Shown: positions 19,496-31,734 of the stretch, piece after piece
Numbering within the stretch: the first letter of the stretch is position 1
Layout: each line of letters opens with the position of its first letter
DNA from: an uncultured archaeon
Lineage (GTDB): Archaea; Iainarchaeota; Iainarchaeia; Iainarchaeales; CSSED10-239
Length of the DNA stretch: 32,000 bases
Reading direction: 5' to 3'
Assembly: GCA_964496765.1 (NCBI GenBank)
Contig: CAZCAP010000002.1
Location: 60,001-92,000 of the forward strand
Program-made: the position numbers and the translations under genes
Notes under the pieces: generated by a model
Seen by the model: the letters and a program-made list of their open reading frames with translations, nothing else
Database searches by the model: none
What the model was told of the DNA's origin: nothing

Positions 19496-20716
19496 TTACC
19501 CAAGAAGATAGTATTCTTTAGACCCATTTATCTTGATTTTTGCTATGTTTCCTAGCTTAATTTTTCCATTTTTATTTGATTTTATAACAACAGGCAGATA
19601 TTCCTCTGTTTTTCCAAGAAATTCGTTTTTGTTTGTGGCTTGTTCGTTGACTAGAACCTGTTTGGTTTGTCCAACAAATATAACAGAATTGTTCCTTGCA
19701 ATCTCTTTTGCAACCTTCGCAAGAATTCTAGATCTCTCCTTCTTAATTTGTCCGTGGAGATCCTTTAGGTTATTTGCTTCTATTCCTTTTCTTTTTCCAA
19801 ATCTTGAAATATTAATTAATGGGGGTTTAATTTTTTTAATAAATTTTATTGTGTTTTCAAACTCTTTTTCTGTTTCTTCTGGAAAACCAACAATCACATC
19901 TGTTGCAATTGTTATTGTTGGGTGAACTTTTCTAAAATAATTAATAATGGTTTCAATTTCCTGCGTTTTATAATATCTATTCATTTTTTTTAGTGTGTTA
20001 TTATCTCCTGCTTGAATAGGGATGTGTAGGAACTTATAAATTTTTTTGTTTTTATATACTTTAGCAAGTTCTTTATAAAATTTAATTAGATGTTGTGGGT
20101 TTGCCATTCCTAATCTTATTCTAAATTCACCAGGTATTTTAATTATTTCTTTAAGTAGATTTACTATGTTTGTCTTAATATCTAATCCATAGCAACCAGT
20201 GTCCTGGGCAGTAAGTAATATTTCTTTTGATCCGTTTTTTAGTGCAAATTTAGTTTCCTCTAGTATTTCCTTAATTAGTTTACTTTTCAGTCTTCCTCTT
20301 GCAAATTTGACTGCGCAATAAGTGCATGCTCCAAGACAGCCGTTTGCAATAATTATTGCCTGAGTTATTTTTTTCTGAGATTTAATTTTACTTTTAGAAA
20401 AAATTAATTTTTTTAATTTTTTTACATCTTTTAACCCAAAATAGTTTGCTTTTGGGCACGTTCTTCTAAGTCCAGATGAATCAATATCAACAAGACACCC
20501 AAACAATATAATTTTTTTATCTTTCGTTCCATTTTTTTTAAGTTCCTGCAGATATTTAATTATTTTAAACTCTGTTTGTTCTTTAACCCCGCAGGTGTTT
20601 ATAAGAATAAAATCCGCAGAATTTATATTTTCTGTTAATATTGTATGATTGGTTAATTCTTCACTAGTTCTTTGATTTAGAGTGCATCCAAATGTTTTAA
20701 CAAATATAGTTTTCAT
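19496..20716 (-). CDS. radical-SAM methylthiotransferase, MiaB/MtaB (CDKAL1-like) family
   Basis: N-terminal UPF0004 domain (VKTFGCTLNQ), radical-SAM cluster CLGACTYCAVKFARG, and a C-terminal TRAM-like domain. A GGTGGAG SD lies upstream. Confidence 0.85.
   Translation of the reverse strand: MKTIFVKTFGCTLNQRTSEELTNHTILTENINSADFILINTCGVKEQTEFKIIKYLQELKKNGTKDKKIILFGCLVDIDSSGLRRTCPKANYFGLKDVKKLKKLIFSKSKIKSQKKITQAIIIANGCLGACTYCAVKFARGRLKSKLIKEILEETKFALKNGSKEILLTAQDTGCYGLDIKTNIVNLLKEIIKIPGEFRIRLGMANPQHLIKFYKELAKVYKNKKIYKFLHIPIQAGDNNTLKKMNRYYKTQEIETIINYFRKVHPTITIATDVIVGFPEETEKEFENTIKFIKKIKPPLINISRFGKRKGIEANNLKDLHGQIKKERSRILAKVAKEIARNNSVIFVGQTKQVLVNEQATNKNEFLGKTEEYLPVVIKSNKNGKIKLGNIAKIKINGSKEYYLLG
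19668..19685 (-). repeat. motif copy 5: TGTCCAACAAATATAACA (plus-strand reading), inside the MtaB-like CDS
   Basis: Exact 18-mer encoding ..NSVIFVGQT.. on the minus strand. It has the same orientation as the gene and lies ~330 nt upstream of the next minus-strand start (19351). Confidence 0.85.
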
Positions 20717-22279: not shown

Positions 22280-24043
22280 TTGCCAACATATTTAGATGAA
22301 CTTGTTTCAAAATACAATAAACCAAAGGACGCAGGAACTCCAGAGGTGATCTCTGATTCCTCAAAACCAAAAACAGACTCAAATGATTTTAAAGAAAAAG
22401 TAATTTCAATTGATGCAATTTCACAAAACAAACCAGTTCAAAATATAGGTTCTATTTCACCTCCTGAAATTAAAAAAGAAGAAATAAAAGATATGAATCA
22501 ACTAACTTCCATTAAAGATTTAATTTCAAAGAGTACAAGCGATGAAAATAAAATAAACAAACTGGATGATTCATCAAATTTTGATGATTATTTGTCTGGT
22601 AAAAAAACAACCCTAATAACTAAGTATGGGCAAACAGAAATTTATAGAATCGAGGGTGAACAATTATTACATTATAAAATTCCAATTCCAAAACCAAATC
22701 CTTCTCAAAAACTTATTATAAACACATTAAAAGAAGCAACAACCAGATTGATTTCATCAGACCCCTATAAAATAAGGGATCCACTACAGAGAAGGAATAT
22801 CTATTATCAAAAAATAATTGAAATTTTAGAAAACGCATCTGAAATAAATATTCCAAAGCACATGTTTGATTTTTATGCGGATGCGGTTGTTAAAGAAATG
22901 ACTGGTTATGGAATAATTGAACCACTACTTCAGGATGATAAGCTTGAAGAAGTAATGATTGTTGGACCAAAAAAACCAGTGTATGTTTATCATTCAGAAT
23001 ATGGTATGCTTAGTACAAACATCGCTTTTAATACTGATGAAGAAATAGAAGAAATAATCGATAAAATCGCAAGAACTCTTGGTCGTCAGGTTGATATTTC
23101 AAATCCAATTCTTGATGCAAGACTACCAGATGGTTCTCGTGTTAATGCAACCATCCCTCCTGCATCCATTGATGGTGCAACAGTTACAATTAGAAAATTC
23201 AGAGCAGATCCCTACACAATTGTAGATATAGTTAATAAAAAAACAGTAAATGTAGAGGTTGCTGCATTTCTATGGTCTGTTGTTGAGGGTTTTGGAGCAA
23301 AACCAGCAAACATATTAATTTCTGGAGGAACAGGTTCAGGAAAAACAACTCTATTAAATGTTTTAGCAAATTTCATTCCTGAAAAAGATAGAATATTAAC
23401 AATTGAGGACACTGCAGAATTACAATTACCATTGAAGCATCTAATTAGATTTGAAGGGAGACCACCTGGAGTTGAAGGAAAAGGTGAATTAAGTTTAGAG
23501 ATATTAACTAAAAACACATTGAGAATGAGACCAGATAGAATAATTGTAGGAGAAATTCGTCATAAGGAAGCAAACGCATTATTCACTGCAATGAACACTG
23601 GTCACGATGGATGTATGGGAACTATCCATGCAAATTCAGCAAGAGAAACACTTGTAAGAATAACCTCTCCACCAATGAATGTGCCTATGCTTATGCTTGC
23701 AGGATTAGATTTTATAATTATTCAAAAAAGGATTGCTACACCAAAAGGCCAAGTTAGAAGAATCACTGCAATTGCAGAGGTTACCGGTGTTTTAGATAAC
23801 GATCCAAAAGCTAATATTATATTTCAATGGAATCCTCAAACAGATGAGCTTGAAAGGACAGATCTCCCAATACGCTATTTTGATACAATAAAAAACTATA
23901 CAAATTTATCAGATTTAGATATAAAACAAAAAATCGAATCAAGGATAAAGATTTTAAATGAGATGGTTACTAATAAAGTAAGAGACTTAACTGAAGTTTC
24001 AAAAATTATCCAAGGAAGTTATGCGAAAATCATATATAATTAA
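22280..24043 (+). CDS. type IV pilus/secretion assembly ATPase (PilB/ArlI/TadA-VirB11 superfamily)
   Basis: Walker A ISGGTGSGKTTLLNVL, Asp box ILTIEDTAEL, Walker B DRIIVGEIR, His box GHDGCMGTIHANS. A TTG start at 22280 sits 6 nt after GGGTGA. There is a ~120-aa S/K/D-rich N-terminal extension. Confidence 0.9.
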   Translation: MPTYLDELVSKYNKPKDAGTPEVISDSSKPKTDSNDFKEKVISIDAISQNKPVQNIGSISPPEIKKEEIKDMNQLTSIKDLISKSTSDENKINKLDDSSNFDDYLSGKKTTLITKYGQTEIYRIEGEQLLHYKIPIPKPNPSQKLIINTLKEATTRLISSDPYKIRDPLQRRNIYYQKIIEILENASEINIPKHMFDFYADAVVKEMTGYGIIEPLLQDDKLEEVMIVGPKKPVYVYHSEYGMLSTNIAFNTDEEIEEIIDKIARTLGRQVDISNPILDARLPDGSRVNATIPPASIDGATVTIRKFRADPYTIVDIVNKKTVNVEVAAFLWSVVEGFGAKPANILISGGTGSGKTTLLNVLANFIPEKDRILTIEDTAELQLPLKHLIRFEGRPPGVEGKGELSLEILTKNTLRMRPDRIIVGEIRHKEANALFTAMNTGHDGCMGTIHANSARETLVRITSPPMNVPMLMLAGLDFIIIQKRIATPKGQVRRITAIAEVTGVLDNDPKANIIFQWNPQTDELERTDLPIRYFDTIKNYTNLSDLDIKQKIESRIKILNEMVTNKVRDLTEVSKIIQGSYAKIIYN

Positions 24044-24058
24044 ATTGATTGAATTGAT

Positions 24059-25201
24059 ATGGATGACAAAAAATTAATTAGATTAAAAGAAGACACCATA
24101 AAGAGTCCAACTAAAAAGAGTAACGTAGACTTGGATGTGGTTCAAAACATTGTTAATAAGATGAAAAAGAAATCTGCTGCCCAGGGGACGGCTGGAAATG
24201 TTTCTGAAGTTCATTTGAAAGAGCTACGAGAAATAATTTCTGAAGGGAAGTTATCTAATCTTGATGCAGACACAGAATCTAAATTAGTATCTGGGAATGA
24301 TTCTTCTTTAGAAAAAAGTTTAGTTAAATTTTATAAACCATTTAAAGCATTTATTAATTACATAGTGATGCTCATTGCAAAAAATTCAATTGGTAAAAAA
24401 ATATCTTTTTATTTAACATCTGCTAACATTAAAAAAACATTAGTTCAACATTTGGTTTTTTCAGTATTATTTTCTATGTTAATTTCTGGATTTATTTCTT
24501 TATTATTAGTTTTATTATTTACCTATTATAATCCACTTCTATTGATTATAATTCCATTTGTTTTTATTGGTCTTTTAGCCATATTAATTTTAATGTTTGC
24601 ATATTTGTTACCTATGCAAAAAGCGAAAATAAGAGGGGTTTTAATTGATGTTGAATTACCCTATGCTCTTCGTCACATAGCAACAGAATTGCAAGCAGGA
24701 ATTGGGTTATTTAAGGTTTTACAATCTGTTGCAAAGAATGATTATGGTGTTCTTTCTGAAGAAATGAATAGAACAATATTAGAGATTGAAAATGGAACAG
24801 ATACAAAAACCGCACTAAGACATGCTACTCTTAGAAGTCAATCTAAAAATTATAATATTGCGTTATTCCACATTGTAAGAACTCTAAACACTGGTGGTAA
24901 TCTTGCAGAAACAATTAATGGGGTTGCTGATTCTGTTTCTTTTGATTTAATGGAATCTGCAAAAGTATTCGGAGAAAAAATGAATTTCTTTGGAATTATT
25001 TTTATTTTTATGGCAATCGTTATGCCTGTGTTTGCTTCGATTTTAGGTGCAATTGCAAACTCACCATTGGGTCAGGATGGGTCTCTATTCCTTCCTGGAG
25101 TGATGACACCAACTATATTGAGTTTAATTTATTTAGTTGCTTTACCAATAATATTTATATTTTTAATATTGTATATTAAAATGATAGAACCAAAGATGTG
25201 A
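24059..25201 (+). CDS. T2SSF-domain pilus platform membrane protein (TadB/TadC/ArlJ-like), copy 1
   Basis: One T2SSF-like cytoplasmic domain (ELPYALRHIATELQAGIGLFKVLQSVAKNDYGVLSEEMNRTILEIENGTDTKTAL) is flanked by TM helices. There is a ~110-aa N-terminal soluble extension. Confidence 0.8.
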   Translation: MDDKKLIRLKEDTIKSPTKKSNVDLDVVQNIVNKMKKKSAAQGTAGNVSEVHLKELREIISEGKLSNLDADTESKLVSGNDSSLEKSLVKFYKPFKAFINYIVMLIAKNSIGKKISFYLTSANIKKTLVQHLVFSVLFSMLISGFISLLLVLLFTYYNPLLLIIIPFVFIGLLAILILMFAYLLPMQKAKIRGVLIDVELPYALRHIATELQAGIGLFKVLQSVAKNDYGVLSEEMNRTILEIENGTDTKTALRHATLRSQSKNYNIALFHIVRTLNTGGNLAETINGVADSVSFDLMESAKVFGEKMNFFGIIFIFMAIVMPVFASILGAIANSPLGQDGSLFLPGVMTPTILSLIYLVALPIIFIFLILYIKMIEPKM

Positions 25202-25205
25202 TTAT

Positions 25206-26099
25206 ATGAAATTTTTAGAAAGATATCAAATATATCTTTATGGACAAAAAATAAAAATACCAGCATTATATTGGTTAGGTATAATTTTTACGTTTTCTCT
25301 TTTGCTTGGAATAGGAGGATATTTCATAGATGCAAAAATTGGATTCCTATTATTTGTAATATTATTAGATTTAGGATATGGTATTCCCATATACCTTTAT
25401 GATAGTCACATTAAACAAATAGAAAGATACTGGCCTGAAGCACTTAAACTAATTGCTGACACCATGAAAGCTGGATCCTCATTTGATTATGCATTGAGAG
25501 AAGTTTGTGTTGCTGATTTTGGGCCCCTATCATTCGAAATAAATGAAGTTATTAGAAGAATAGAAATGGGAGATACCACTGTTAAAGCACTTGGATTTTT
25601 ATCCTATAGGGTCGAATCAAAAGTTGTTAGAAGAACAGTTACATTAATTCAGGAATCATTGAGAACTGGTGCTCCATTAGCAGATGTTTTAGAAGAAATT
25701 GCTAATGATACAAAATACATTTATAGAATTAAAAAGGAAAGACAAACAAAAACAATGCTTCAAACAATATTTATTGTTGCTGCTGGTTCAGTTGTTGCTC
25801 CTTTCATTTTTGGATTAACAAGAGTAATTACAGAATTTTTAACAAATGTAGCAACTGACACCGGAATTGCGTCTGCTTCTGCATTGGTAGTTGCAATGCA
25901 AACCCAGGCTACAATCTTTTTACTACTTGATATTTATATTATCTTAGAGGTTCTTGCTGCTTCCGCAATGATTAGTATGATGAGAGAAGGTAAGCTAAGT
26001 CCAATGTATGTATTTTTTCCTGTAATGATAACCATTGCATACACTGTATATCTCATAGCCCAGGTTGTTTTAAGAGGAATGCTTGCAGGAATGATATGA
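25206..26099 (+). CDS. T2SSF-domain pilus platform membrane protein (TadB/TadC/ArlJ-like), copy 2
   Basis: One T2SSF-like domain (WPEALKLIADTMKAGSSFDYALREV...INEVIRRIEMGDTTVKAL...TGAPLADVLEEIAND) is flanked by TM helices. It starts 4 nt after the stop of copy 1. Confidence 0.8.
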   Translation: MKFLERYQIYLYGQKIKIPALYWLGIIFTFSLLLGIGGYFIDAKIGFLLFVILLDLGYGIPIYLYDSHIKQIERYWPEALKLIADTMKAGSSFDYALREVCVADFGPLSFEINEVIRRIEMGDTTVKALGFLSYRVESKVVRRTVTLIQESLRTGAPLADVLEEIANDTKYIYRIKKERQTKTMLQTIFIVAAGSVVAPFIFGLTRVITEFLTNVATDTGIASASALVVAMQTQATIFLLLDIYIILEVLAASAMISMMREGKLSPMYVFFPVMITIAYTVYLIAQVVLRGMLAGMI

Positions 26100-26109
26100 A
26101 ATTTCGTAG

Positions 26110-26295
26110 ATGATGTTTATGAGAGAAAAACTTAAAAAAATTATAAAAGAAGAAAAGGCACAGGTGTCTTTGGAGTTTTTAATTATACTTGGAATTGTTG
26201 CTCTTGCTGCAGTTGCTGTTGGGTTTTATTTAAAGCAGGTATCTGCAAAGAATGTTAAAAATGCAACAAGTACACAAGCTGATGCAATGAAGTAA
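26110..26295 (+). CDS. very small class III signal-peptide pilin-like protein (Flp-sized)
   Basis: 61 aa. EEKA-QVSLEFLIILGIVALAAVAVGFYL fits the (K)(G/A)-Q-x-(A/S)-x-E-(Y/F) prepilin motif followed by a hydrophobic helix. Confidence 0.75.
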   Translation: MMFMREKLKKIIKEEKAQVSLEFLIILGIVALAAVAVGFYLKQVSAKNVKNATSTQADAMK

Positions 26296-26429
26296 ATCAA
26301 TTAGGTTAACTTTCCTAAACAGAAATATATATAAATCTGACGTTCTTATATATAGTAAATAATTATTATATCTTGAAAAAAGATTATAATAAAAAAACTT
26401 AAAAAAACAAAATAAATAGGTGAAATAAA

Positions 26430-26903
26430 ATGATGAGAAAAATTAAAGGACAAGGTGCACTTGAATACCTTTTGTTAATTGGTGGTGCTGTTCTAATTGC
26501 TGTAATCGTTATTGCTCTTCTTGTTGGAATGGGCGGACAGTCAAGAGAAACAGCTCAAGATCAATCAACAAAAGCTCAACAATCATTAGATCAGCCACAG
26601 GCAGCAACAATCGTTAGTATAACACCAATAGATAATTGTAATGGAACTACAGGTTCTGTCACAATAAATTGGGCAAAAGTTGGAGATGGTGGTGTATATG
26701 AGTTAAGGATGTTTGATTATTCAGGAACACAAATTGGAAGTAATATCGATATAACAGATCAAAATGCATCATTTAACCAAGCATTTGCTTCTATTGGTGG
26801 TAGGGCTTGTCAAGATTCGTTCTGGGGACAAATTATAACTTCAAAGAATGATATGACTGTAAGTTCTGCAAGAATGAAATGGAATTGGCCATCACTAAAC
26901 TAG
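26430..26903 (+). CDS. type IV pilin-like protein with class III signal peptide (candidate major pilin)
   Basis: MMRKIKG-QGALEYLLLIGGAVLIAVIVIALLV, then a ~110-aa beta-rich domain. It has a strong AGGTGA SD, its own AT-rich upstream region and a strong downstream hairpin. Confidence 0.85.
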   Translation: MMRKIKGQGALEYLLLIGGAVLIAVIVIALLVGMGGQSRETAQDQSTKAQQSLDQPQAATIVSITPIDNCNGTTGSVTINWAKVGDGGVYELRMFDYSGTQIGSNIDITDQNASFNQAFASIGGRACQDSFWGQIITSKNDMTVSSARMKWNWPSLN

Positions 26904-26921
26904 TTTGAGATTTGAAAATTT

Positions 26922-26964
26922 AAAGAAATGGACTAATCTCCATTTCTTTAATTTATTTTTTTTT
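26922..26964 (+). terminator. stem-loop plus T-run downstream of the first large pilin gene
   Basis: A perfect 11-bp stem AAAGAAATGGA (26922-26932) / TCCATTTCTTT (26939-26949) encloses a 6-nt loop. It is followed by AATTTATTTTTTTTT. Confidence 0.7.
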
Positions 26965-27006
26965 AAAATCAAATTATACTTATAATTTAATTTAAACGGA
27001 ATAATT

Positions 27007-27447
27007 ATGTTTACTAATAATAAAAAAGCACAGGGTGCACTTGAATATCTTTTAATTATAGGTGGAGCTTTACTGATTGCAGTTATTGCAGTAACTATAA
27101 TTGTAAGTCTTGGTAGTGGTAACCGTGAAACCGTTGATGATAGTCAGCAAGGTTATCAGGAACTTGTTGATAATCAAGTTATTGCTCCAATAATAAATGA
27201 TATTGAATGTTCAATTGGCACAATAACAATTTACACAGCTGGATCTCCAACCACAGGAGTTTCCAATTACAAAATAAGTTTAGATGATGGTCTCTATGTT
27301 AATGTAACAACCATAGATATCCCAAATAGAGAAATTACTTATAATAAGGTGAGCGTAGTTGGAACAAAATATGAAGTTAGATTAGTTTCAATTAAGAATA
27401 ATTTAAGATCAACACCAACACTACCTTTTGATTGTGTTGTTAAATAA
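27007..27447 (+). CDS. type IV pilin-like protein with class III signal peptide (paralog of 26430-26903)
   Basis: MFTNNKKA-QGALEYLLIIGGALLIAVIAVTIIV. The N-terminal ~45 aa align with the preceding pilin, including the shared ..RET..D.. segment; the C-terminal domain has diverged. Confidence 0.85.
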   Translation: MFTNNKKAQGALEYLLIIGGALLIAVIAVTIIVSLGSGNRETVDDSQQGYQELVDNQVIAPIINDIECSIGTITIYTAGSPTTGVSNYKISLDDGLYVNVTTIDIPNREITYNKVSVVGTKYEVRLVSIKNNLRSTPTLPFDCVVK

Positions 27448-27457
27448 GATCCAGAAG

Positions 27458-27658
27458 ATGGGAGTTATGAATATTTTTTTAAAATTACTTAATGATAAAA
27501 AAGCACAACTCTCTGTTGAATATCTTATCATGATTGTATTTGGAATGATGCTTGTAATTACAACAGGTATTGTTATTATTAATTTAAGTGGCCTTGTTAG
27601 TGTTGCAAAAGCAAAAATATTAACCTATAGAGATAATATACTTTCAACATTTTCATAA
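27458..27658 (+). CDS. very small class III signal-peptide pilin-like protein
   Basis: NDKKA-QLSVEYLIMIVFGMMLVITTGIVIINL. About 66 aa from ATG 27458 (alternative ATG at 27467). The track's TTG at 27428 overlaps the previous gene. Confidence 0.7.
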   Translation: MGVMNIFLKLLNDKKAQLSVEYLIMIVFGMMLVITTGIVIINLSGLVSVAKAKILTYRDNILSTFS

Positions 27659-27693
27659 ATTCTAAACAACGCTAATTACTTTGGAGTAACCCT

Positions 27694-28827
27694 ATGTTTA
27701 ATTTTGCATTATATTCTTTTTTAGTTACCCTACTATTTCTATTTATTTTTTGCATATTTGATTTAAAATATAGAGAAATACCTAATTATCTTGTTCTTCT
27801 ATTTTTTGGGATTGGTTTGTTATCTAGTTTAGTAATTAGTTTTTGGCTATGGCAATTTTCATATATTTTTAATTCATTAATTTCAATTGCAATTACTTTC
27901 ATTATAACCTTTATTCTTTGGGAGCTTGGTTTATTTGCAGGAGGGGATTTAAAGGTTTTTGTTGGGATTGCTGCACTTAACCCACTAAACCTTAACTTTT
28001 TAGGTTCTGCACTTAACTTTGGAGTGGTTAAGCAACCAATATTTGGAATCACCTTAATTATCGCAAGTATATTATCAACACTACCCTATATCCTCCTATT
28101 TACTAGCTATAAAATAATTTCTAAAAATTATTTCAAAGACCTAGTTATAACTTATTTTTCAAAAACCTACTTAATAACTATTTTTAATTCAATAATAATT
28201 ATTTTTCTAATTACCTCCTTTATGAATATTTTTTCATTAAAAACACCAACAATATTATTACTATTATTATCTTTTGTTTTGATTTTTTTATTTTCTAATG
28301 TACTTACCTATAGTAAAAAAGCATTTTATTTTTCTATCGGGATGCTTTATTTAATTTTATTTATTACGACCTGTTTATTAAAACATGTTCCTCAAAAGAT
28401 TTTTTTACTTTCAAACCTTTTTTCAATAATTTTATCAGTACTAATAATTTATCTATTAATCATGATTTATAGGTTCACAAAAGAAAAAATACTTGTTGAA
28501 GAAAAAAAAGTATCTGACCTGAAAGAAGGGGATGTTACTTTATATAATTATTATTTAATTAATAAAAAAGTAATATTTAAAAAAAGCACTTTTTTCTCTG
28601 CCATTAGAGATATGCTAACTGGAGTTTATTATAAAGACCAAATAATTGATTCTAGAAAAGCTGGTGGGTTAAATGTGAAAGAAGTTACCTTTTTAAATGA
28701 ATCCCACAATAATAAATTAATAGGTAATGTAATAAAAATCAAAGTCACTATTGCATTTACTCCAGCAGTATTAATTGCATATATCTTGCTTAATATTTTT
28801 GGAGACGTGATTTGGTTAATATTTTAA
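27694..28827 (+). CDS. A24-family prepilin/preflagellin peptidase (PibD/FlaK/EppA-like), enlarged
   Basis: The first catalytic Asp lies in CIFDLKYREIPN and the second in the GxGD-type motif FAGGDLKVFVGIAA. About 200 extra residues (additional TM helices plus a soluble KEGDV-containing segment) precede the last TM IAFTPAVLIAYIL. Confidence 0.85.
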   Translation: MFNFALYSFLVTLLFLFIFCIFDLKYREIPNYLVLLFFGIGLLSSLVISFWLWQFSYIFNSLISIAITFIITFILWELGLFAGGDLKVFVGIAALNPLNLNFLGSALNFGVVKQPIFGITLIIASILSTLPYILLFTSYKIISKNYFKDLVITYFSKTYLITIFNSIIIIFLITSFMNIFSLKTPTILLLLLSFVLIFLFSNVLTYSKKAFYFSIGMLYLILFITTCLLKHVPQKIFLLSNLFSIILSVLIIYLLIMIYRFTKEKILVEEKKVSDLKEGDVTLYNYYLINKKVIFKKSTFFSAIRDMLTGVYYKDQIIDSRKAGGLNVKEVTFLNESHNNKLIGNVIKIKVTIAFTPAVLIAYILLNIFGDVIWLIF

Positions 28828-28839
28828 ATGTGAAAAATT

Positions 28840-29304
28840 ATGAATTTAAGTAGAAAAGGACAAATTGCAATTGAATATATTATTTTTATAGCCATATTCT
28901 TATTATTTTTTCAAGCAGTGATTAAGCCATCTATTGATTTTGCAGAAAATATAATGAGTGATGTTCAATCTATTGCTATTACCCAAGAAAACGTAAGTAG
29001 GCTTGCTGATGGTGTTAGTTCCTTTGCATCATCTATGGGGACTGGAAAGGTAACCATGAATTTGTATTTACCAAAGAATGCAACAATTACGGATTGTAGT
29101 TCTAGTGCAATTACCTATACTATAACTATCTCTAACGTAAATCCGAAACCAGCTGCCTGTAATAATACTAATTTTTGCGAATTTACAAAAGCAATATTTA
29201 TTGGTAGTCACGATATTACCTGTGATTTAATAGGGCCTGGTTTTACAGGAGACGTACTTATTGAAAAACAAGCCACAGGAGATTTTGATGTTTCAATCAA
29301 GTAA
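28840..29304 (+). CDS. pilin-like protein with class III signal peptide (minor pilin candidate)
   Basis: MNLSRKG-QIAIEYIIFIAIFLLFFQAV, followed by a ~120-aa domain containing 4 Cys. Confidence 0.8.
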   Translation: MNLSRKGQIAIEYIIFIAIFLLFFQAVIKPSIDFAENIMSDVQSIAITQENVSRLADGVSSFASSMGTGKVTMNLYLPKNATITDCSSSAITYTITISNVNPKPAACNNTNFCEFTKAIFIGSHDITCDLIGPGFTGDVLIEKQATGDFDVSIK

Positions 29305-29641
29305 AGCCCAAACAAGCATAGAGTTCATTATTCTGATTGCAGTCCTATTATTAATAGGATTTTATTTTAGTGGTTCAATCTACAAAACCTTTGATAGTAA
29401 TTATGCAATTTATAAAGTTAAAAACAAAACTCTACAGCTCTTCTCAGAGAATGATAGTGGAGATGTGCTTTCTAAGGTTAGCTATGAATTGCACGATTCT
29501 CAAATCGTCTTGAAGTTAGATATTAAACAATCAAGTTCTGGATACATTTTAACCTCATCAAATTATGCTTCTGATATTCAAGACATAATTAAAAGAACTA
29601 GTTTCGATACAGTTGTTATTAATTTTAATTATATTTCTTAA
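29288..29641 (+). CDS. pilin-like protein with class III signal peptide (minor pilin candidate)
   Basis: MFQSSKA-QTSIEFIILIAVLLLIGFYF. ATG 29288 overlaps the upstream gene by 17 nt. The track's TTG at 29261 is less likely. Confidence 0.75.
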   Translation: MFQSSKAQTSIEFIILIAVLLLIGFYFSGSIYKTFDSNYAIYKVKNKTLQLFSENDSGDVLSKVSYELHDSQIVLKLDIKQSSSGYILTSSNYASDIQDIIKRTSFDTVVINFNYIS

Positions 29642-29654
29642 ATGGTGTGTGTAA

Positions 29655-30188
29655 ATGATAGATAAAAATATATTATATATTGAAATAATTTTTCTATTGG
29701 GTGTTCTATTAACTGTTTTTATTTCCAAAAATGTTTTTTTGAAAATCCTAATCGTAATTGTGTTGTTCTTATTCGTAATAAAAGAACTTGATGATTATAA
29801 ATATATTCAACAAAAATATCTTTATGTTGGATATGGGTTTGTTTCACTACTAGTGTTGTTCATTATTAATGAATATATTGTGAATATATATTTTGTTGCT
29901 GCCCTCATATGCCTTGTAATTATTTACTTGTATTTGTTCAAGGTTTTATTTAATACAACATATGGAAAAGTAACTAAAGTAACTGGAAGAAAAGTAAGTA
30001 TTCAAATCCTAGATCCCTTTTATAAAACAAAAAATGAATTAGTTCTTAGCTTTTCTGGAAAAGTTAAGAAAGGAGATGTTGCAATAATTGCGCTAACCAA
30101 ATTCCCAATAAATAAGAAAGCCATTAAAATAATTAAAGTTGTTACAGAACCTAAATCATTGAATAAAAATGTGAAAAAAAAGAAATGA
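29655..30188 (+). CDS. membrane protein (3 TM) with C-terminal small beta-barrel-like domain, unknown function
   Basis: 177 aa. Three hydrophobic helices are followed by GKVTKVTGRKVSIQILDP...VKKGDVAIIAL. A GGTG SD lies upstream. Its stop overlaps the next start (ATGA). Confidence 0.7.
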   Translation: MIDKNILYIEIIFLLGVLLTVFISKNVFLKILIVIVLFLFVIKELDDYKYIQQKYLYVGYGFVSLLVLFIINEYIVNIYFVAALICLVIIYLYLFKVLFNTTYGKVTKVTGRKVSIQILDPFYKTKNELVLSFSGKVKKGDVAIIALTKFPINKKAIKIIKVVTEPKSLNKNVKKKK

Positions 30189-30547
30189 ATGAAATTCTAT
30201 TCAAAAGAATAGTGATATTGTTTTCAATAGTTGGTCTGATTTTATTAGTTGTTTATTCATTCTTTTTTGTTCCTGAGGAACAATCTATTTCTAGTTTACC
30301 TACATTGAAAGAAGGTACAATTGTATCAACATCAGGGATTATAAAGGAATTAGCAGTAAAAGATAATCTTGTTCAATTTCAGCTTTGTGAATATTCTATT
30401 TGTATTCAGGCAGTTCTTTTCAATCCAAGTAATAGTCAATTAGATGTATTAAATAATCTAAGTATTACAAAAGAAAATACTAGACTATCTGGTCAATATA
30501 AATTATATATGGATAATCCAGAAATTATTGTATACAATATTGAATGA
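30185..30547 (+). CDS. N-terminally anchored protein with OB-fold-like domain, unknown function
   Basis: 120 aa. A single N-terminal TM (IVILFSIVGLILLVVYSFFFV) is followed by a pattern resembling OB folds (EGTIVSTSGIIKEL..VQFQLCEYSICIQAVLF..SGQYKLYMDNPEIIVYNIE). ATGA overlaps occur at both ends. Confidence 0.65.
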   Translation: MNEILFKRIVILFSIVGLILLVVYSFFFVPEEQSISSLPTLKEGTIVSTSGIIKELAVKDNLVQFQLCEYSICIQAVLFNPSNSQLDVLNNLSITKENTRLSGQYKLYMDNPEIIVYNIE

Positions 30548-31734
30548 CTATGTATTTAATTGAAATAATTATAGGGGTGTTGTTGGGGTTTGTTATTGGA
30601 TTAATTCCTAGTATACACATAAATACAATATCCTATTTTTTTTTGTTTATTGGAGGTTATAATCTTTTTTATAATAATTCATTTTTTTTTATATCTTTGG
30701 CGGTTTCCCAATTAGTAACTAGTTACGTTTCTATTTCTGTTTTTGGAGTTCCAAATGATTCAACAATCATGCATTTATTTCCACTTCAAAGACTGGCAAA
30801 GGAGGGACAATTAAAAAAAGGGATTTATCTTTGTTTAGTTGGTTCTTTCTTTGGAGGCCTATTCTCTCTACTATTATTTCCCATTCTTTTTTTACTATTT
30901 AGTGCTTTGTTTAATTTTAATTTATTTATTTATGGCTTGATTATTTTAATTTTAATTATGTTTATTATTTTAGAAAAAAACATTAAAAAAAGAATAGGAA
31001 TACTTGCAATAATTATTTTTTCTGGAACTCTTGGAATACTCACCCTTAAATATAATTATTTTCTTTCGGAACCACTAATGGTTTGTGTGGTGGGCCTGTT
31101 TGCATTCCCATTTATATTAGAATCTATTTTTTCTAAAAATAGGTTTGTTAAACAAAAAGATGAAGACCTGCAAATAAATCTAAAGGACACTGGTGTTTCT
31201 TCATTTCTTGGAACTTTGGGTGCAATGTTTATGATAATCGTGCCCTCATTTAGCTCATCACAGGCATCACTGCTATTGTCAAAGATTAAACAAAAACTAA
31301 ATTCAGAGGAATACTTGTTGATTTTTTCCAGTGTTGCCATTAGTTCTTTATTTTTTTCTTTTTTTCTTGCAATTAATTTTTATAAACCTAGATTGGGTTA
31401 CATTGCTATTCTTTTATCCAATAACATTCTTGGCAAGAGCATTTCTAACTTTAATCTTGCAATTACCTTATTTTTATCTTTATGTTTGTCAATATTACTT
31501 TTATCTTTTACCTATAAACAAATAGTTGATTGGATAACTAGATTTAATTTTAAATTAATTAGTGTTATTTTATTGCTTTTTATTTCAATCCTTATTATCC
31601 TATTATTTGGAATGAAAGCTATTCCTCTATTAATTCTATCAACCTCAATTGGATTTCTTCCTCTTGTGTTTGGAGTGGATCGAGTTATCCTAATGAGTTA
31701 CATTATGATCCCAACAATATTATTTTATGTGTGA
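30544..31734 (+). CDS. polytopic membrane protein (~10 TM), possibly TctA/DUF112-like
   Basis: 396 aa and highly hydrophobic. Two similar segments, GFVIGLIPSIHINT and GAMFMIIVPSFSSSQ, recall the duplicated TctA/DUF112 motif. The family assignment is tentative. Confidence 0.6.
   Translation: MTMYLIEIIIGVLLGFVIGLIPSIHINTISYFFLFIGGYNLFYNNSFFFISLAVSQLVTSYVSISVFGVPNDSTIMHLFPLQRLAKEGQLKKGIYLCLVGSFFGGLFSLLLFPILFLLFSALFNFNLFIYGLIILILIMFIILEKNIKKRIGILAIIIFSGTLGILTLKYNYFLSEPLMVCVVGLFAFPFILESIFSKNRFVKQKDEDLQINLKDTGVSSFLGTLGAMFMIIVPSFSSSQASLLLSKIKQKLNSEEYLLIFSSVAISSLFFSFFLAINFYKPRLGYIAILLSNNILGKSISNFNLAITLFLSLCLSILLLSFTYKQIVDWITRFNFKLISVILLLFISILIILLFGMKAIPLLILSTSIGFLPLVFGVDRVILMSYIMIPTILFYV

Follow-up and report, generated by a model that had tools for sequence, protein, structure and literature searches.

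What are three overlapping membrane genes doing at the 3′ end of an archaeal type IV pilus locus? The locus in question lies at positions 22280-31734 of the window, by which we mean the whole stretch of 32,000 nucleotides analyzed here (contig CAZCAP010000002.1, positions 60,001 to 92,000), from an uncultured archaeon of the Iainarchaeota. It consists of 13 open reading frames (ORFs), numbered g01 to g13, which are close-packed and co-oriented on the + strand. An earlier sequence-only reading had described a packed, co-oriented 13-gene pilus locus and named its parts, and this description is borne out by the ORFs, each of which lies where it had been placed, and by Pfam scans. That reading left the three membrane genes at the 3′ end (g11-g13) unexplained, and these are the informative part of the locus. 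What is new here, as judged from gene content and order, is an Epd-like pilus operon that appears to carry a candidate DNA-uptake pair (g12 and g13) together with a third putative partner, g11. On balance, we lean toward a reading in which the pilus is functionally coupled to g11, g12, and g13 acting as a DNA-import module.

The source assembly spans 737,780 bp in 26 contigs at ~29% G+C and is 86% complete, and genome-wide search results given below refer to this assembly. Its size agrees with the earlier suggestion of a small-genome archaeon, and a DPANN host is indicated by the names given to proteins of its relatives, ‘Candidatus ainarchaeum sp.’ and ‘Candidatus Diapherotrites archaeon’. 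Genes within the locus are separated by gaps of 4-35 nt or overlap, except for wider spacers in front of g05 (134 nt) and g06 (103 nt), and the gene located 3′ of g13 is convergent. Both junctions within the terminal trio (g11/g12 and g12/g13) are 4-nt overlaps. From this arrangement, g11-g13 are predicted to be joined to the pilus operon and to be translationally coupled.

The last of the three genes, g13 (30544-31734), encodes a polytopic permease of 396 aa that matches the TctA family (PF01970, E=2.7e-25) over positions 2-422 of 423, and the genome has no second TctA-family gene. It differs from the bacterial TctABC tricarboxylate transporter in standing without TctB or the periplasmic binding protein TctC, and neither TctC (PF03401) nor TctB (PF07331) has a match in the genome. 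The gene before it, g12 (30185-30547), encodes a single-pass protein of 120 aa whose AlphaFold2 (AF2) model (predicted local distance difference test score, or pLDDT, of 92.9; 11 orthologs) has a transmembrane helix at residues 3-26 followed by the order β1-β2-β3-helix-β4-β5. When this model was searched with Foldseek, 271 PDB matches were obtained at E≤0.001, and the top matches listed are all nucleic-acid OB folds, namely STN1/RPA32, the OB domain of PolD, and the anticodon-binding OB domains of AspRS, LysRS, and AsnRS. At the level of the family, PF01336 is matched by 41 of 49 members. The modeled OB domain probably faces the outside of the cell because the charged residues K7 and R8 precede the transmembrane helix and acidic residues come after it. 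A single relative among these 49 members also gave a sub-threshold match (E=0.0018) to DUF4131 (PF13567), a domain that is found at the N-terminus of ComEC. This match was treated as noise.

The first gene of the trio, g11 (29655-30188), encodes a protein of 177 aa that has no Pfam match and that no described family fits. Its AF2 model (pLDDT 89.2) contains four transmembrane helices (residues 4-22, 27-47, 52-72, and 78-98), then a five-stranded barrel within residues 101-163, and finally a lysine-rich tail. The C-terminal domain is basic in every ortholog compared, with an isoelectric point (pI) of 9.1-10.6 in 20 of 20. Foldseek returned OB-like or cold-shock-like matches to this protein, of which the best has E=0.008 and none reaches E≤0.001. 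Because these matches are weak, the barrel was left unclassified.

No match to ComEC (PF03772) was found in the genome. To our knowledge, archaea lack ComEC, and the manner in which DNA passes across the membrane during archaeal transformation is an open question. The only archaeal candidate we know of is a TctA-like permease with an OB-fold partner, which emerged from genetics in two methanogens.

In Methanococcus maripaludis JJ, a transposon screen combined with clean deletions established that natural transformation needs the Epd pilus genes (PMC10133366). In the same work, two adjacent genes, MMJJ_13020 (an OB fold with one transmembrane helix) and MMJJ_13030 (TctA-like), were each found to be essential for transformation, and both mutants were complemented. 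Transformation of Methanoculleus thermophilus likewise requires its TctA-like homolog, and the TctA-like protein was proposed to be the missing archaeal DNA transporter (PMC10133366). The products of g12 and g13 appear, by family and architecture, to be of the same two kinds as this pair. Both organisms have the two genes adjacent and in the same order, with a single-pass OB protein of the PF01336 type followed by a PF01970 permease of ~400 aa, both lack TctB and TctC, and both also have an Epd-type pilus. The two cases differ in that the Methanococcus pair is located far from the pilus genes, whereas here the pair closes the pilus operon with 4-nt overlaps and is preceded by a third conserved partner, g11.

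Joining of the pair to the end of the Epd-type operon across an entire DPANN phylum, the Iainarchaeota, is what would be expected of a pilus and a pair that cooperate. The order of the pilus block is kept in relatives whose proteins are 25-60% identical, and thus the block is not a chance arrangement. Relatives within the family share all 13 genes of the block as well as the RFC gene upstream. Across the order, the conserved tail reads EppA, two minor pilins, a g11-like protein with four transmembrane helices (in some cases), the transmembrane OB protein, and TctA. The phylum-wide sample comprised 40 TctA-like loci from ~24 families of Iainarchaeota, two of which are from other orders. Co-oriented genes for the ATPase, EppA, the minor pilins, g11 (when present), g12, and TctA fall within ~8 kb in 29-30 of these 40 loci, and a recognizable g12 lies directly upstream of the TctA-like gene in at least 31. 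The TctA-like proteins of the fused loci share as little as 22-30% identity.

A second sample was drawn from outside the phylum and consisted of 80 TctA-like loci. Methanomassiliicoccales contributed 28 of these, and the remainder are mainly from Woesearchaeota, Pacearchaeota, and other Nanoarchaeota, Aenigmatarchaeota, and Nanohaloarchaea, with additional loci from Altiarchaeota and Methanocellales. A g12-like gene is located directly upstream in 17 of the 80 and nearby in several more. Pilus genes, whether for the ATPase, the platform, EppA, or Gln+1 pilins, are missing from the 6-kb surroundings of all 80. Protein profile searches returned matches from DPANN, Thermoplasmata, and metagenomes only, and Methanococcales are absent both from the best 120 protein matches and from the 80 loci. 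The OB/TctA-like pair is therefore widespread among the archaeal lineages sampled, and among these lineages its fusion to a pilus operon is specific to Iainarchaeota. In the literature searched we found no report of such an operon linkage, and a 2026 census of type IV filaments (PMC13705601) is silent on TctA.

One genus in the sample, g27, initially looked like a case in which the pilus had been retained and the TctA-like gene lost. This interpretation was rejected, as the slot after the g12-like gene is filled by a divergent polytopic protein of 320-327 aa (7908-9231 of L169, G041:C1; 7533-8844 of L170, G063:C6). It has no Pfam match and aligns to the TctA-like profile with an hhalign probability of 59% (E=9e-5), and it is probably a divergent homolog. 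On the 3′ side of this slot are a JAB/MPN-domain gene and then four to five genes with N-terminal hydrophobic segments that resemble the starts of pilins.

What kind of pilus is it that carries the three genes? The locus very probably encodes an Epd-like type IV pilus (clade 1 of Makarova, ‘system 1’ of Albers), a type whose sister is the Tad pilus of bacteria. Both Epd-like and Tad systems build on a pair of platform genes with one T2SSF domain each and on short major pilins (Denise et al. 2019, PMC6668835), and an Epd-like system is regarded as the ancestor of Tad (PMC6668835). Clade 1 has been defined by a CpaF-family ATPase (arCOG01819) and two TadC-like genes, along with major pilins of ~70 aa, at least five minor pilins, and additional membrane proteins (Makarova et al. 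2016, PMC4858521). The long form of EppA with nine transmembrane helices, which is 375 aa in Thermococcus sibiricus, is restricted to clade 1 organisms (PMC4858521). The sequence-only reading had regarded the combination of split platform, Flp-sized pilins, and enlarged peptidase as no textbook type of archaeal pilus. This claim fails because a split platform, short pilins, and a long EppA-type peptidase are the hallmarks of the published Epd-like type, and we rejected an unusual or novel pilus type on the basis of those definitions. System 1 has been reported as common in Nanobdellati (DPANN), where 1990 genomes have system 1 pilins (Sivabalasarma and Albers 2026, PMC13705601), and the classification is an ordinary result that agrees with these reports. 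Ordered loci are rare in DPANN (PMC13705601), and the sole organizational peculiarity of this Epd-like pilus is that the whole system is ordered in a single block.

The Epd pilus of M. maripaludis shares with this locus a CpaF-family ATPase, a platform pair with single T2SSF domains (EpdJ and EpdK), a long EppA-type peptidase, prepilins with Gln at +1 and Glu at +5, a short major pilin that has no globular domain, several minor pilins, extra membrane proteins, and an absence of archaellum genes. In M. maripaludis, however, epdJKL, the eppA/epdA-C cluster, and the major pilin gene occupy separate sites, whereas here they form one co-oriented block. The two systems differ further in that the OB-fold/TctA-like pair and g11 are inside the operon here, and in that no MinD/FleN-like ATPase or DUF2341 adhesin was seen among the ORFs scanned in the block. 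Bacterial Tad/Flp systems (CpaF/TadA, TadB, TadC, Flp, and TadV) likewise have a split TadB/TadC-like platform, Flp-sized pilins with Glu at +5, and a dedicated peptidase, and CpaF is the closest solved ATPase to g01. Unlike those systems, the locus has an archaeal host and the long archaeal EppA form as its peptidase, and the scans run on its 13 genes revealed no homolog of a secretin, TadZ, TadD, TadE, TadF, or TadG.

The secretion ATPase, g01 (22280-24043, 587 aa), is of the CpaF/Epd-like kind and matches T2SSE at E=1.3e-49. Its N-terminal ~170 residues are poorly conserved, and orthologs across the order are 53-85% identical. When compared with solved structures, g01 scores 249 bits against CpaF, 230 against AfGspE, and 182 against FlaI. 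The genome has four T2SSE ATPases and at least three split platform gene pairs, and the three paralogs of g01 give 139, 315, and 232 bits, 107, 184, and 127 bits, and 106, 102, and 80 bits against the same three structures. Thus, two of the paralogs clearly favor AfGspE or FlaI, and the third, a divergent protein, scores weakly and almost equally against all three. Platform protein A, g02 (24059-25201, 380 aa), is TadB/EpdJ-like and has one T2SSF domain (PF00482) at residues 203-329 (E=1.3e-15). Its gene stays adjacent to g01 in relatives. It is followed after a gap of 4 nt by platform protein B, g03 (25206-26099, 297 aa), which is TadC/EpdK-like with one T2SSF domain at residues 80-202 (E=4.9e-14).

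Several observations were made on related ATPases. The pilus ATPase orthologs at G019:C1:80803-85455, G030:C2:66507-69332, and G058:C10:19431-22268 are open frames of 1572, 1109, and 1102 aa, respectively, in which the matching segments are split by long inserts near ATPase residues 380-446. These inserts in the ATPase core are most likely inteins. A paralogous secretion ATPase of 626 aa (G000:C6:24326-26206, - strand, equivalent to L003:1153-3033) matches an Fe-S-cluster (ferredoxin-like) hydrogenase subunit with residues 28-112 (E=2.8e-11). It is followed by two polytopic membrane genes, which were not detected as T2SSF in the search run. The window also contains a KaiC/ArlH (FlaH)-like ATPase of 233 aa (12350-13051, + strand; PF06745, E=4e-60) that lies 9 kb upstream of the pilus locus. 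A FlaH-like secondary ATPase adjoins Epd ATPases in the survey by Denise et al. (2019, PMC6668835). No FlaH-like or MinD/FleN-like (TadZ-like) ATPase was recognized among the 13 genes of the locus, to which the scan for MinD-like genes was confined.

The prepilin peptidase, g08 (27694-28827, 377 aa), matches both Peptidase_A24 (PF01478, 4.2e-11) and Arc_PepC (PF06819, 1.9e-6) over the gathering scores, and it is the only long form among the three A24 peptidases in the genome. Its two catalytic aspartates, D23 and D85, do not vary among 13 orthologs, and among its database relatives PF06819 is present in 18 of 18, with PF01478 also present in 17 of these. The best NCBIfam match of g08 is EppA, which is aligned over its full length (positions 5-329 of 334) with 52.8 bits. 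This score is far below the cut-off of 450 bits for the EppA equivalog, which sets g08 apart from the established Epd peptidase, and we therefore designate it as EppA-type and not as an equivalog. Transmembrane helix counts obtained by the Kyte-Doolittle method are crude (9-13 for the TctA-like orthologs and 6-10 for the peptidases) and were not used as evidence.

EppA needs Gln at the +1 position (PMC4371748), and the six small proteins of the locus all carry a cleavage motif of the form [KR][GA]|Q at +1 with E at +5. The gathering score of Class_IIIsignal is reached by g04, g05, g06, and g10 and missed by g07 and g09. The first of these proteins, g04 (26110-26295), is a short prepilin of 61 aa (31.7 bits; KA|Q) with a mature length of 44 aa and no globular domain. 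It is followed by an AT-rich spacer of 134 nt (26296-26429) in which a TATA-like run can be read at ~26326-26340, and this spacer possibly holds an internal promoter for g05. The g05 prepilin (26430-26903, 157 aa; 30.0 bits) begins with GALEYLLLIGGA and has a beta-rich C-terminal domain, and a hairpin followed by a T-run is located 3′ of its stop codon at ~26920-26975. Its paralog g06 (27007-27447, 146 aa; 31.1 bits) shares with g05 an N-terminal DNA repeat (repeat families D2 and D7). In relatives the g05 slot is variable and holds proteins of 53 aa up to 624 aa. In G021 (L033), for example, two class III signal proteins, of 342 and 624 aa, occupy the g05/g06 slot and flank an 883-aa gene. 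This variability is consistent with service as a tip pilin or an adhesin.

The best-conserved pilin is g07, a short prepilin with the motif KKA|Q (Class_IIIsignal 17.2 bits, below the cut-off) and a mature length of 50 aa. Ortholog identity is 72-80% in the family and 35-43% over the whole order, in which the orthologs measure 56-64 aa. Although its ORF is listed from a TTG at 27428, the true start is probably the ATG at 27458 or the one at 27467, and the former places the gene at 27458-27658. The major subunit is most likely g07, with g04 as a possible alternative. The two minor prepilins are g09 (28840-29304, 154 aa; KG|Q; 21.0 bits, below the cut-off), which directly follows the peptidase gene across the phylum, and g10 (KA|Q; 27.0 bits), whose ORF is listed from a TTG at 29261 and for which the ATG at 29288 is the likelier start (29288-29641).

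How might these parts work together? To build the pilus, the EppA-type peptidase g08 would cut the six Gln+1 prepilins, and the CpaF-like g01 would act on the split platform of g02 and g03 to polymerize a short subunit (g07 or possibly g04) into a thin filament. The g09 and g10 proteins and the variable g05 and g06 would serve as minor, priming, or tip pilins. In the DNA-uptake model that we propose, the pilus would capture extracellular or host DNA, which the external OB domain of g12 would receive in the manner of ComEA. The TctA-like permease g13 would then pass the DNA across the membrane in the manner of ComEC, and the basic beta-barrel of g11 could meet it on the cytoplasmic side. The analysis establishes what the genes are, how their products fold, and that their synteny is kept in the phylum, and the need for the pair in transformation was demonstrated by others, in Methanococcus only. 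DNA transport, membrane topology, and any host-attachment role of the locus are features that we infer. The resemblance to bacterial competence systems (a type IV competence pilus, ComEA, and ComEC) is confined to this proposed logic, in which a pilus, an external membrane-anchored DNA receptor, and a polytopic channel act in series. There is no homology. The receptor candidate has an OB fold instead of a helix-hairpin-helix, and the channel candidate is TctA-like. A bolder version, which we put forward tentatively and consider somewhat doubtful, is that the locus would be a self-contained competence operon, the first in which an Epd-type pilus and a candidate archaeal DNA translocase form one unit, with g11 as a hitherto unnoticed third component.

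A number of points weigh against this combined reading of an Epd-like pilus and DNA uptake. Even in Methanococcus, the idea that TctA-like proteins transport DNA is hypothetical (PMC10133366), and the link from g12 and g13 to the Methanococcus pair is made through Pfam family, domain architecture, and gene adjacency. The g12 protein itself has no Pfam match, PF01336 included, and its OB domain is acidic (pI 4.7), with values for orthologs that vary around a median of 6.8. A staphylococcal-type nuclease (SNase) is required for transformation in Methanococcus (PMC10133366), and the genome gave no SNase match. The placement of g01 was made by bit scores against solved structures and not by a tree with EpdL. 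Co-transcription of the 13 genes as one operon is an assumption because g05 appears, from its flanking sequences, to have its own promoter and terminator. Moreover, 10 of the 40 Iainarchaeota loci carry g12 and TctA, with or without g11, apart from pilus genes. Finally, the TctA-like ortholog of one relative (G008:C1, locus L030, 9483-10652) has five in-frame stops, and the pilus genes beside it are intact. All five stops are TAG, they align to differing residues in the orthologs, the local alignment is disturbed around them, and some of the neighboring pilus genes end in TAG as a normal stop. The gene is probably a decaying pseudogene, as far as can be judged from these features. The all-TAG pattern is odd for this genome, which has ~30% G+C.

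Several of these same observations bear on the possibility that the structure is purely an adhesion or host-attachment pilus, in which g11-g13 are structural or assembly accessories that serve as an anchor or base or in the handling of pilins or glycans, with no import of DNA. Surface attachment in M. maripaludis is mediated by the Epd pilus (PMC4371748), the acidity of the g12 OB domain speaks for such a role, and operon fusion suits an assembly role equally well. Furthermore, mutants in the OB and TctA-like genes would also fail to transform if they had lost their pili. The published study is silent on whether these strains are piliated and on any electron microscopy of them (PMC10133366), so that this alternative would account for their phenotype as well. 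The pilus may serve in host attachment. An accessory function is nonetheless difficult to reconcile with the widespread occurrence of the pair apart from pilus genes, as is seen in all 80 loci from other lineages and in 10 of the 40 from Iainarchaeota. The relative in which the TctA-like gene looks broken has intact pilus genes, and the OB fold belongs to a nucleic-acid-binding Pfam family. In the portions available of the published accounts, neither the 11-gene M. maripaludis epd cluster nor epdJKL genetics lists the pair as pilus genes. We consider an accessory role for the trio unlikely, while giving it more weight than any of the alternatives that follow.

A different possibility is that g13 is an ordinary permease for a solute such as an organic acid that rides with the pilus operon, and that g11 and g12 are small subunits that replace TctB and TctC. 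A characterized bacterial member of PF01970 imports citrate (PMC10133366), and operon neighbors in reduced genomes may be functionally unrelated. Yet TctB and TctC were not found in the genome, the partner is an OB fold of the nucleic-acid type and not a solute-binding protein, and the fusion has been kept through deep divergence, down to 22-30% identity in at least two orders, with turnover of the flanking genes. Given also that Methanococcus genetics tie the family to transformation (PMC10133366), solute import is improbable. The variable g05/g06 slot, with relatives that have 342- and 624-aa class III proteins beside an 883-aa gene, could instead be taken to indicate a pseudopilus or secretion device, similar to a bindosome or a type II secretion system, that displays or exports g05, g06, and their giant relatives and forms no long filament. 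Many archaea have binding proteins with class III signal peptides, according to a recent survey (PMC13705601), but a substrate-binding-protein domain was present in none of the locus proteins scanned, and conservation is highest in Flp-like pilins of 44-50 aa, a kind typical of Epd and Tad filaments. Such a device is accordingly very improbable. Least credible of all is a degenerate archaellum, a motility organelle that the sequence-only reading had also set aside in favor of a type IV pilus. The top NCBIfam match of g01 is the FlaI model (286 bits against a cut-off of 550), and the KaiC/ArlH-like ATPase gene (12350-13051) is 9 kb upstream. However, the archaellin/ArlF/G family (PF01917) has no match at E≤1 in the genome, and a control search with this model gave matches in all four archaeal control genomes. 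In addition, the platform is split into single-domain genes, g01 is nearer to CpaF than to FlaI, and the pilins have Gln at +1, a residue that FlaK of M. maripaludis does not process, just as EppA does not process archaellins (PMC4371748).

Other features of the window lie outside the pilus locus. A ribonucleotide reductase large subunit of 863 aa with an ATP-cone is encoded directly after a corrinoid adenosyltransferase of the BtuR/CobO family (8630-11749, + strand), a pairing that suggests an adenosylcobalamin-dependent enzyme, and therefore this reduced genome is still able to convert ribonucleotides to deoxyribonucleotides. A tyrosine recombinase gene (6675-7535, - strand; Phage_integrase family, E=1.2e-49), which may be XerA-like or an integrase, lies a few kilobases from a tRNA gene cluster at 2116-3838. 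The 19-mer TTGTTATATTTGTTGGACA occurs in six copies with at most three mismatches (180-198, 3884-3902, 7552-7570, 12215-12233, 15731-15749, and 19668-19686), compared with 0.07 expected, and none of the copies is inside the pilus locus.

To return to the reading in which the Epd-like pilus and its 3′ genes serve in DNA uptake, the locus provides a line of gene-context evidence on the archaeal DNA translocase that is independent of the methanogen genetics. It also nominates g11 as a third conserved partner, and its compact set of 13 genes is testable in M. maripaludis. The locus yields the prediction that Iainarchaeota are naturally competent or scavenge DNA. If this is true, these archaea would take up environmental or host DNA, either for the genes that it carries or as a source of nucleotides, in parallel to the natural competence reported for Saccharibacteria with tiny genomes.

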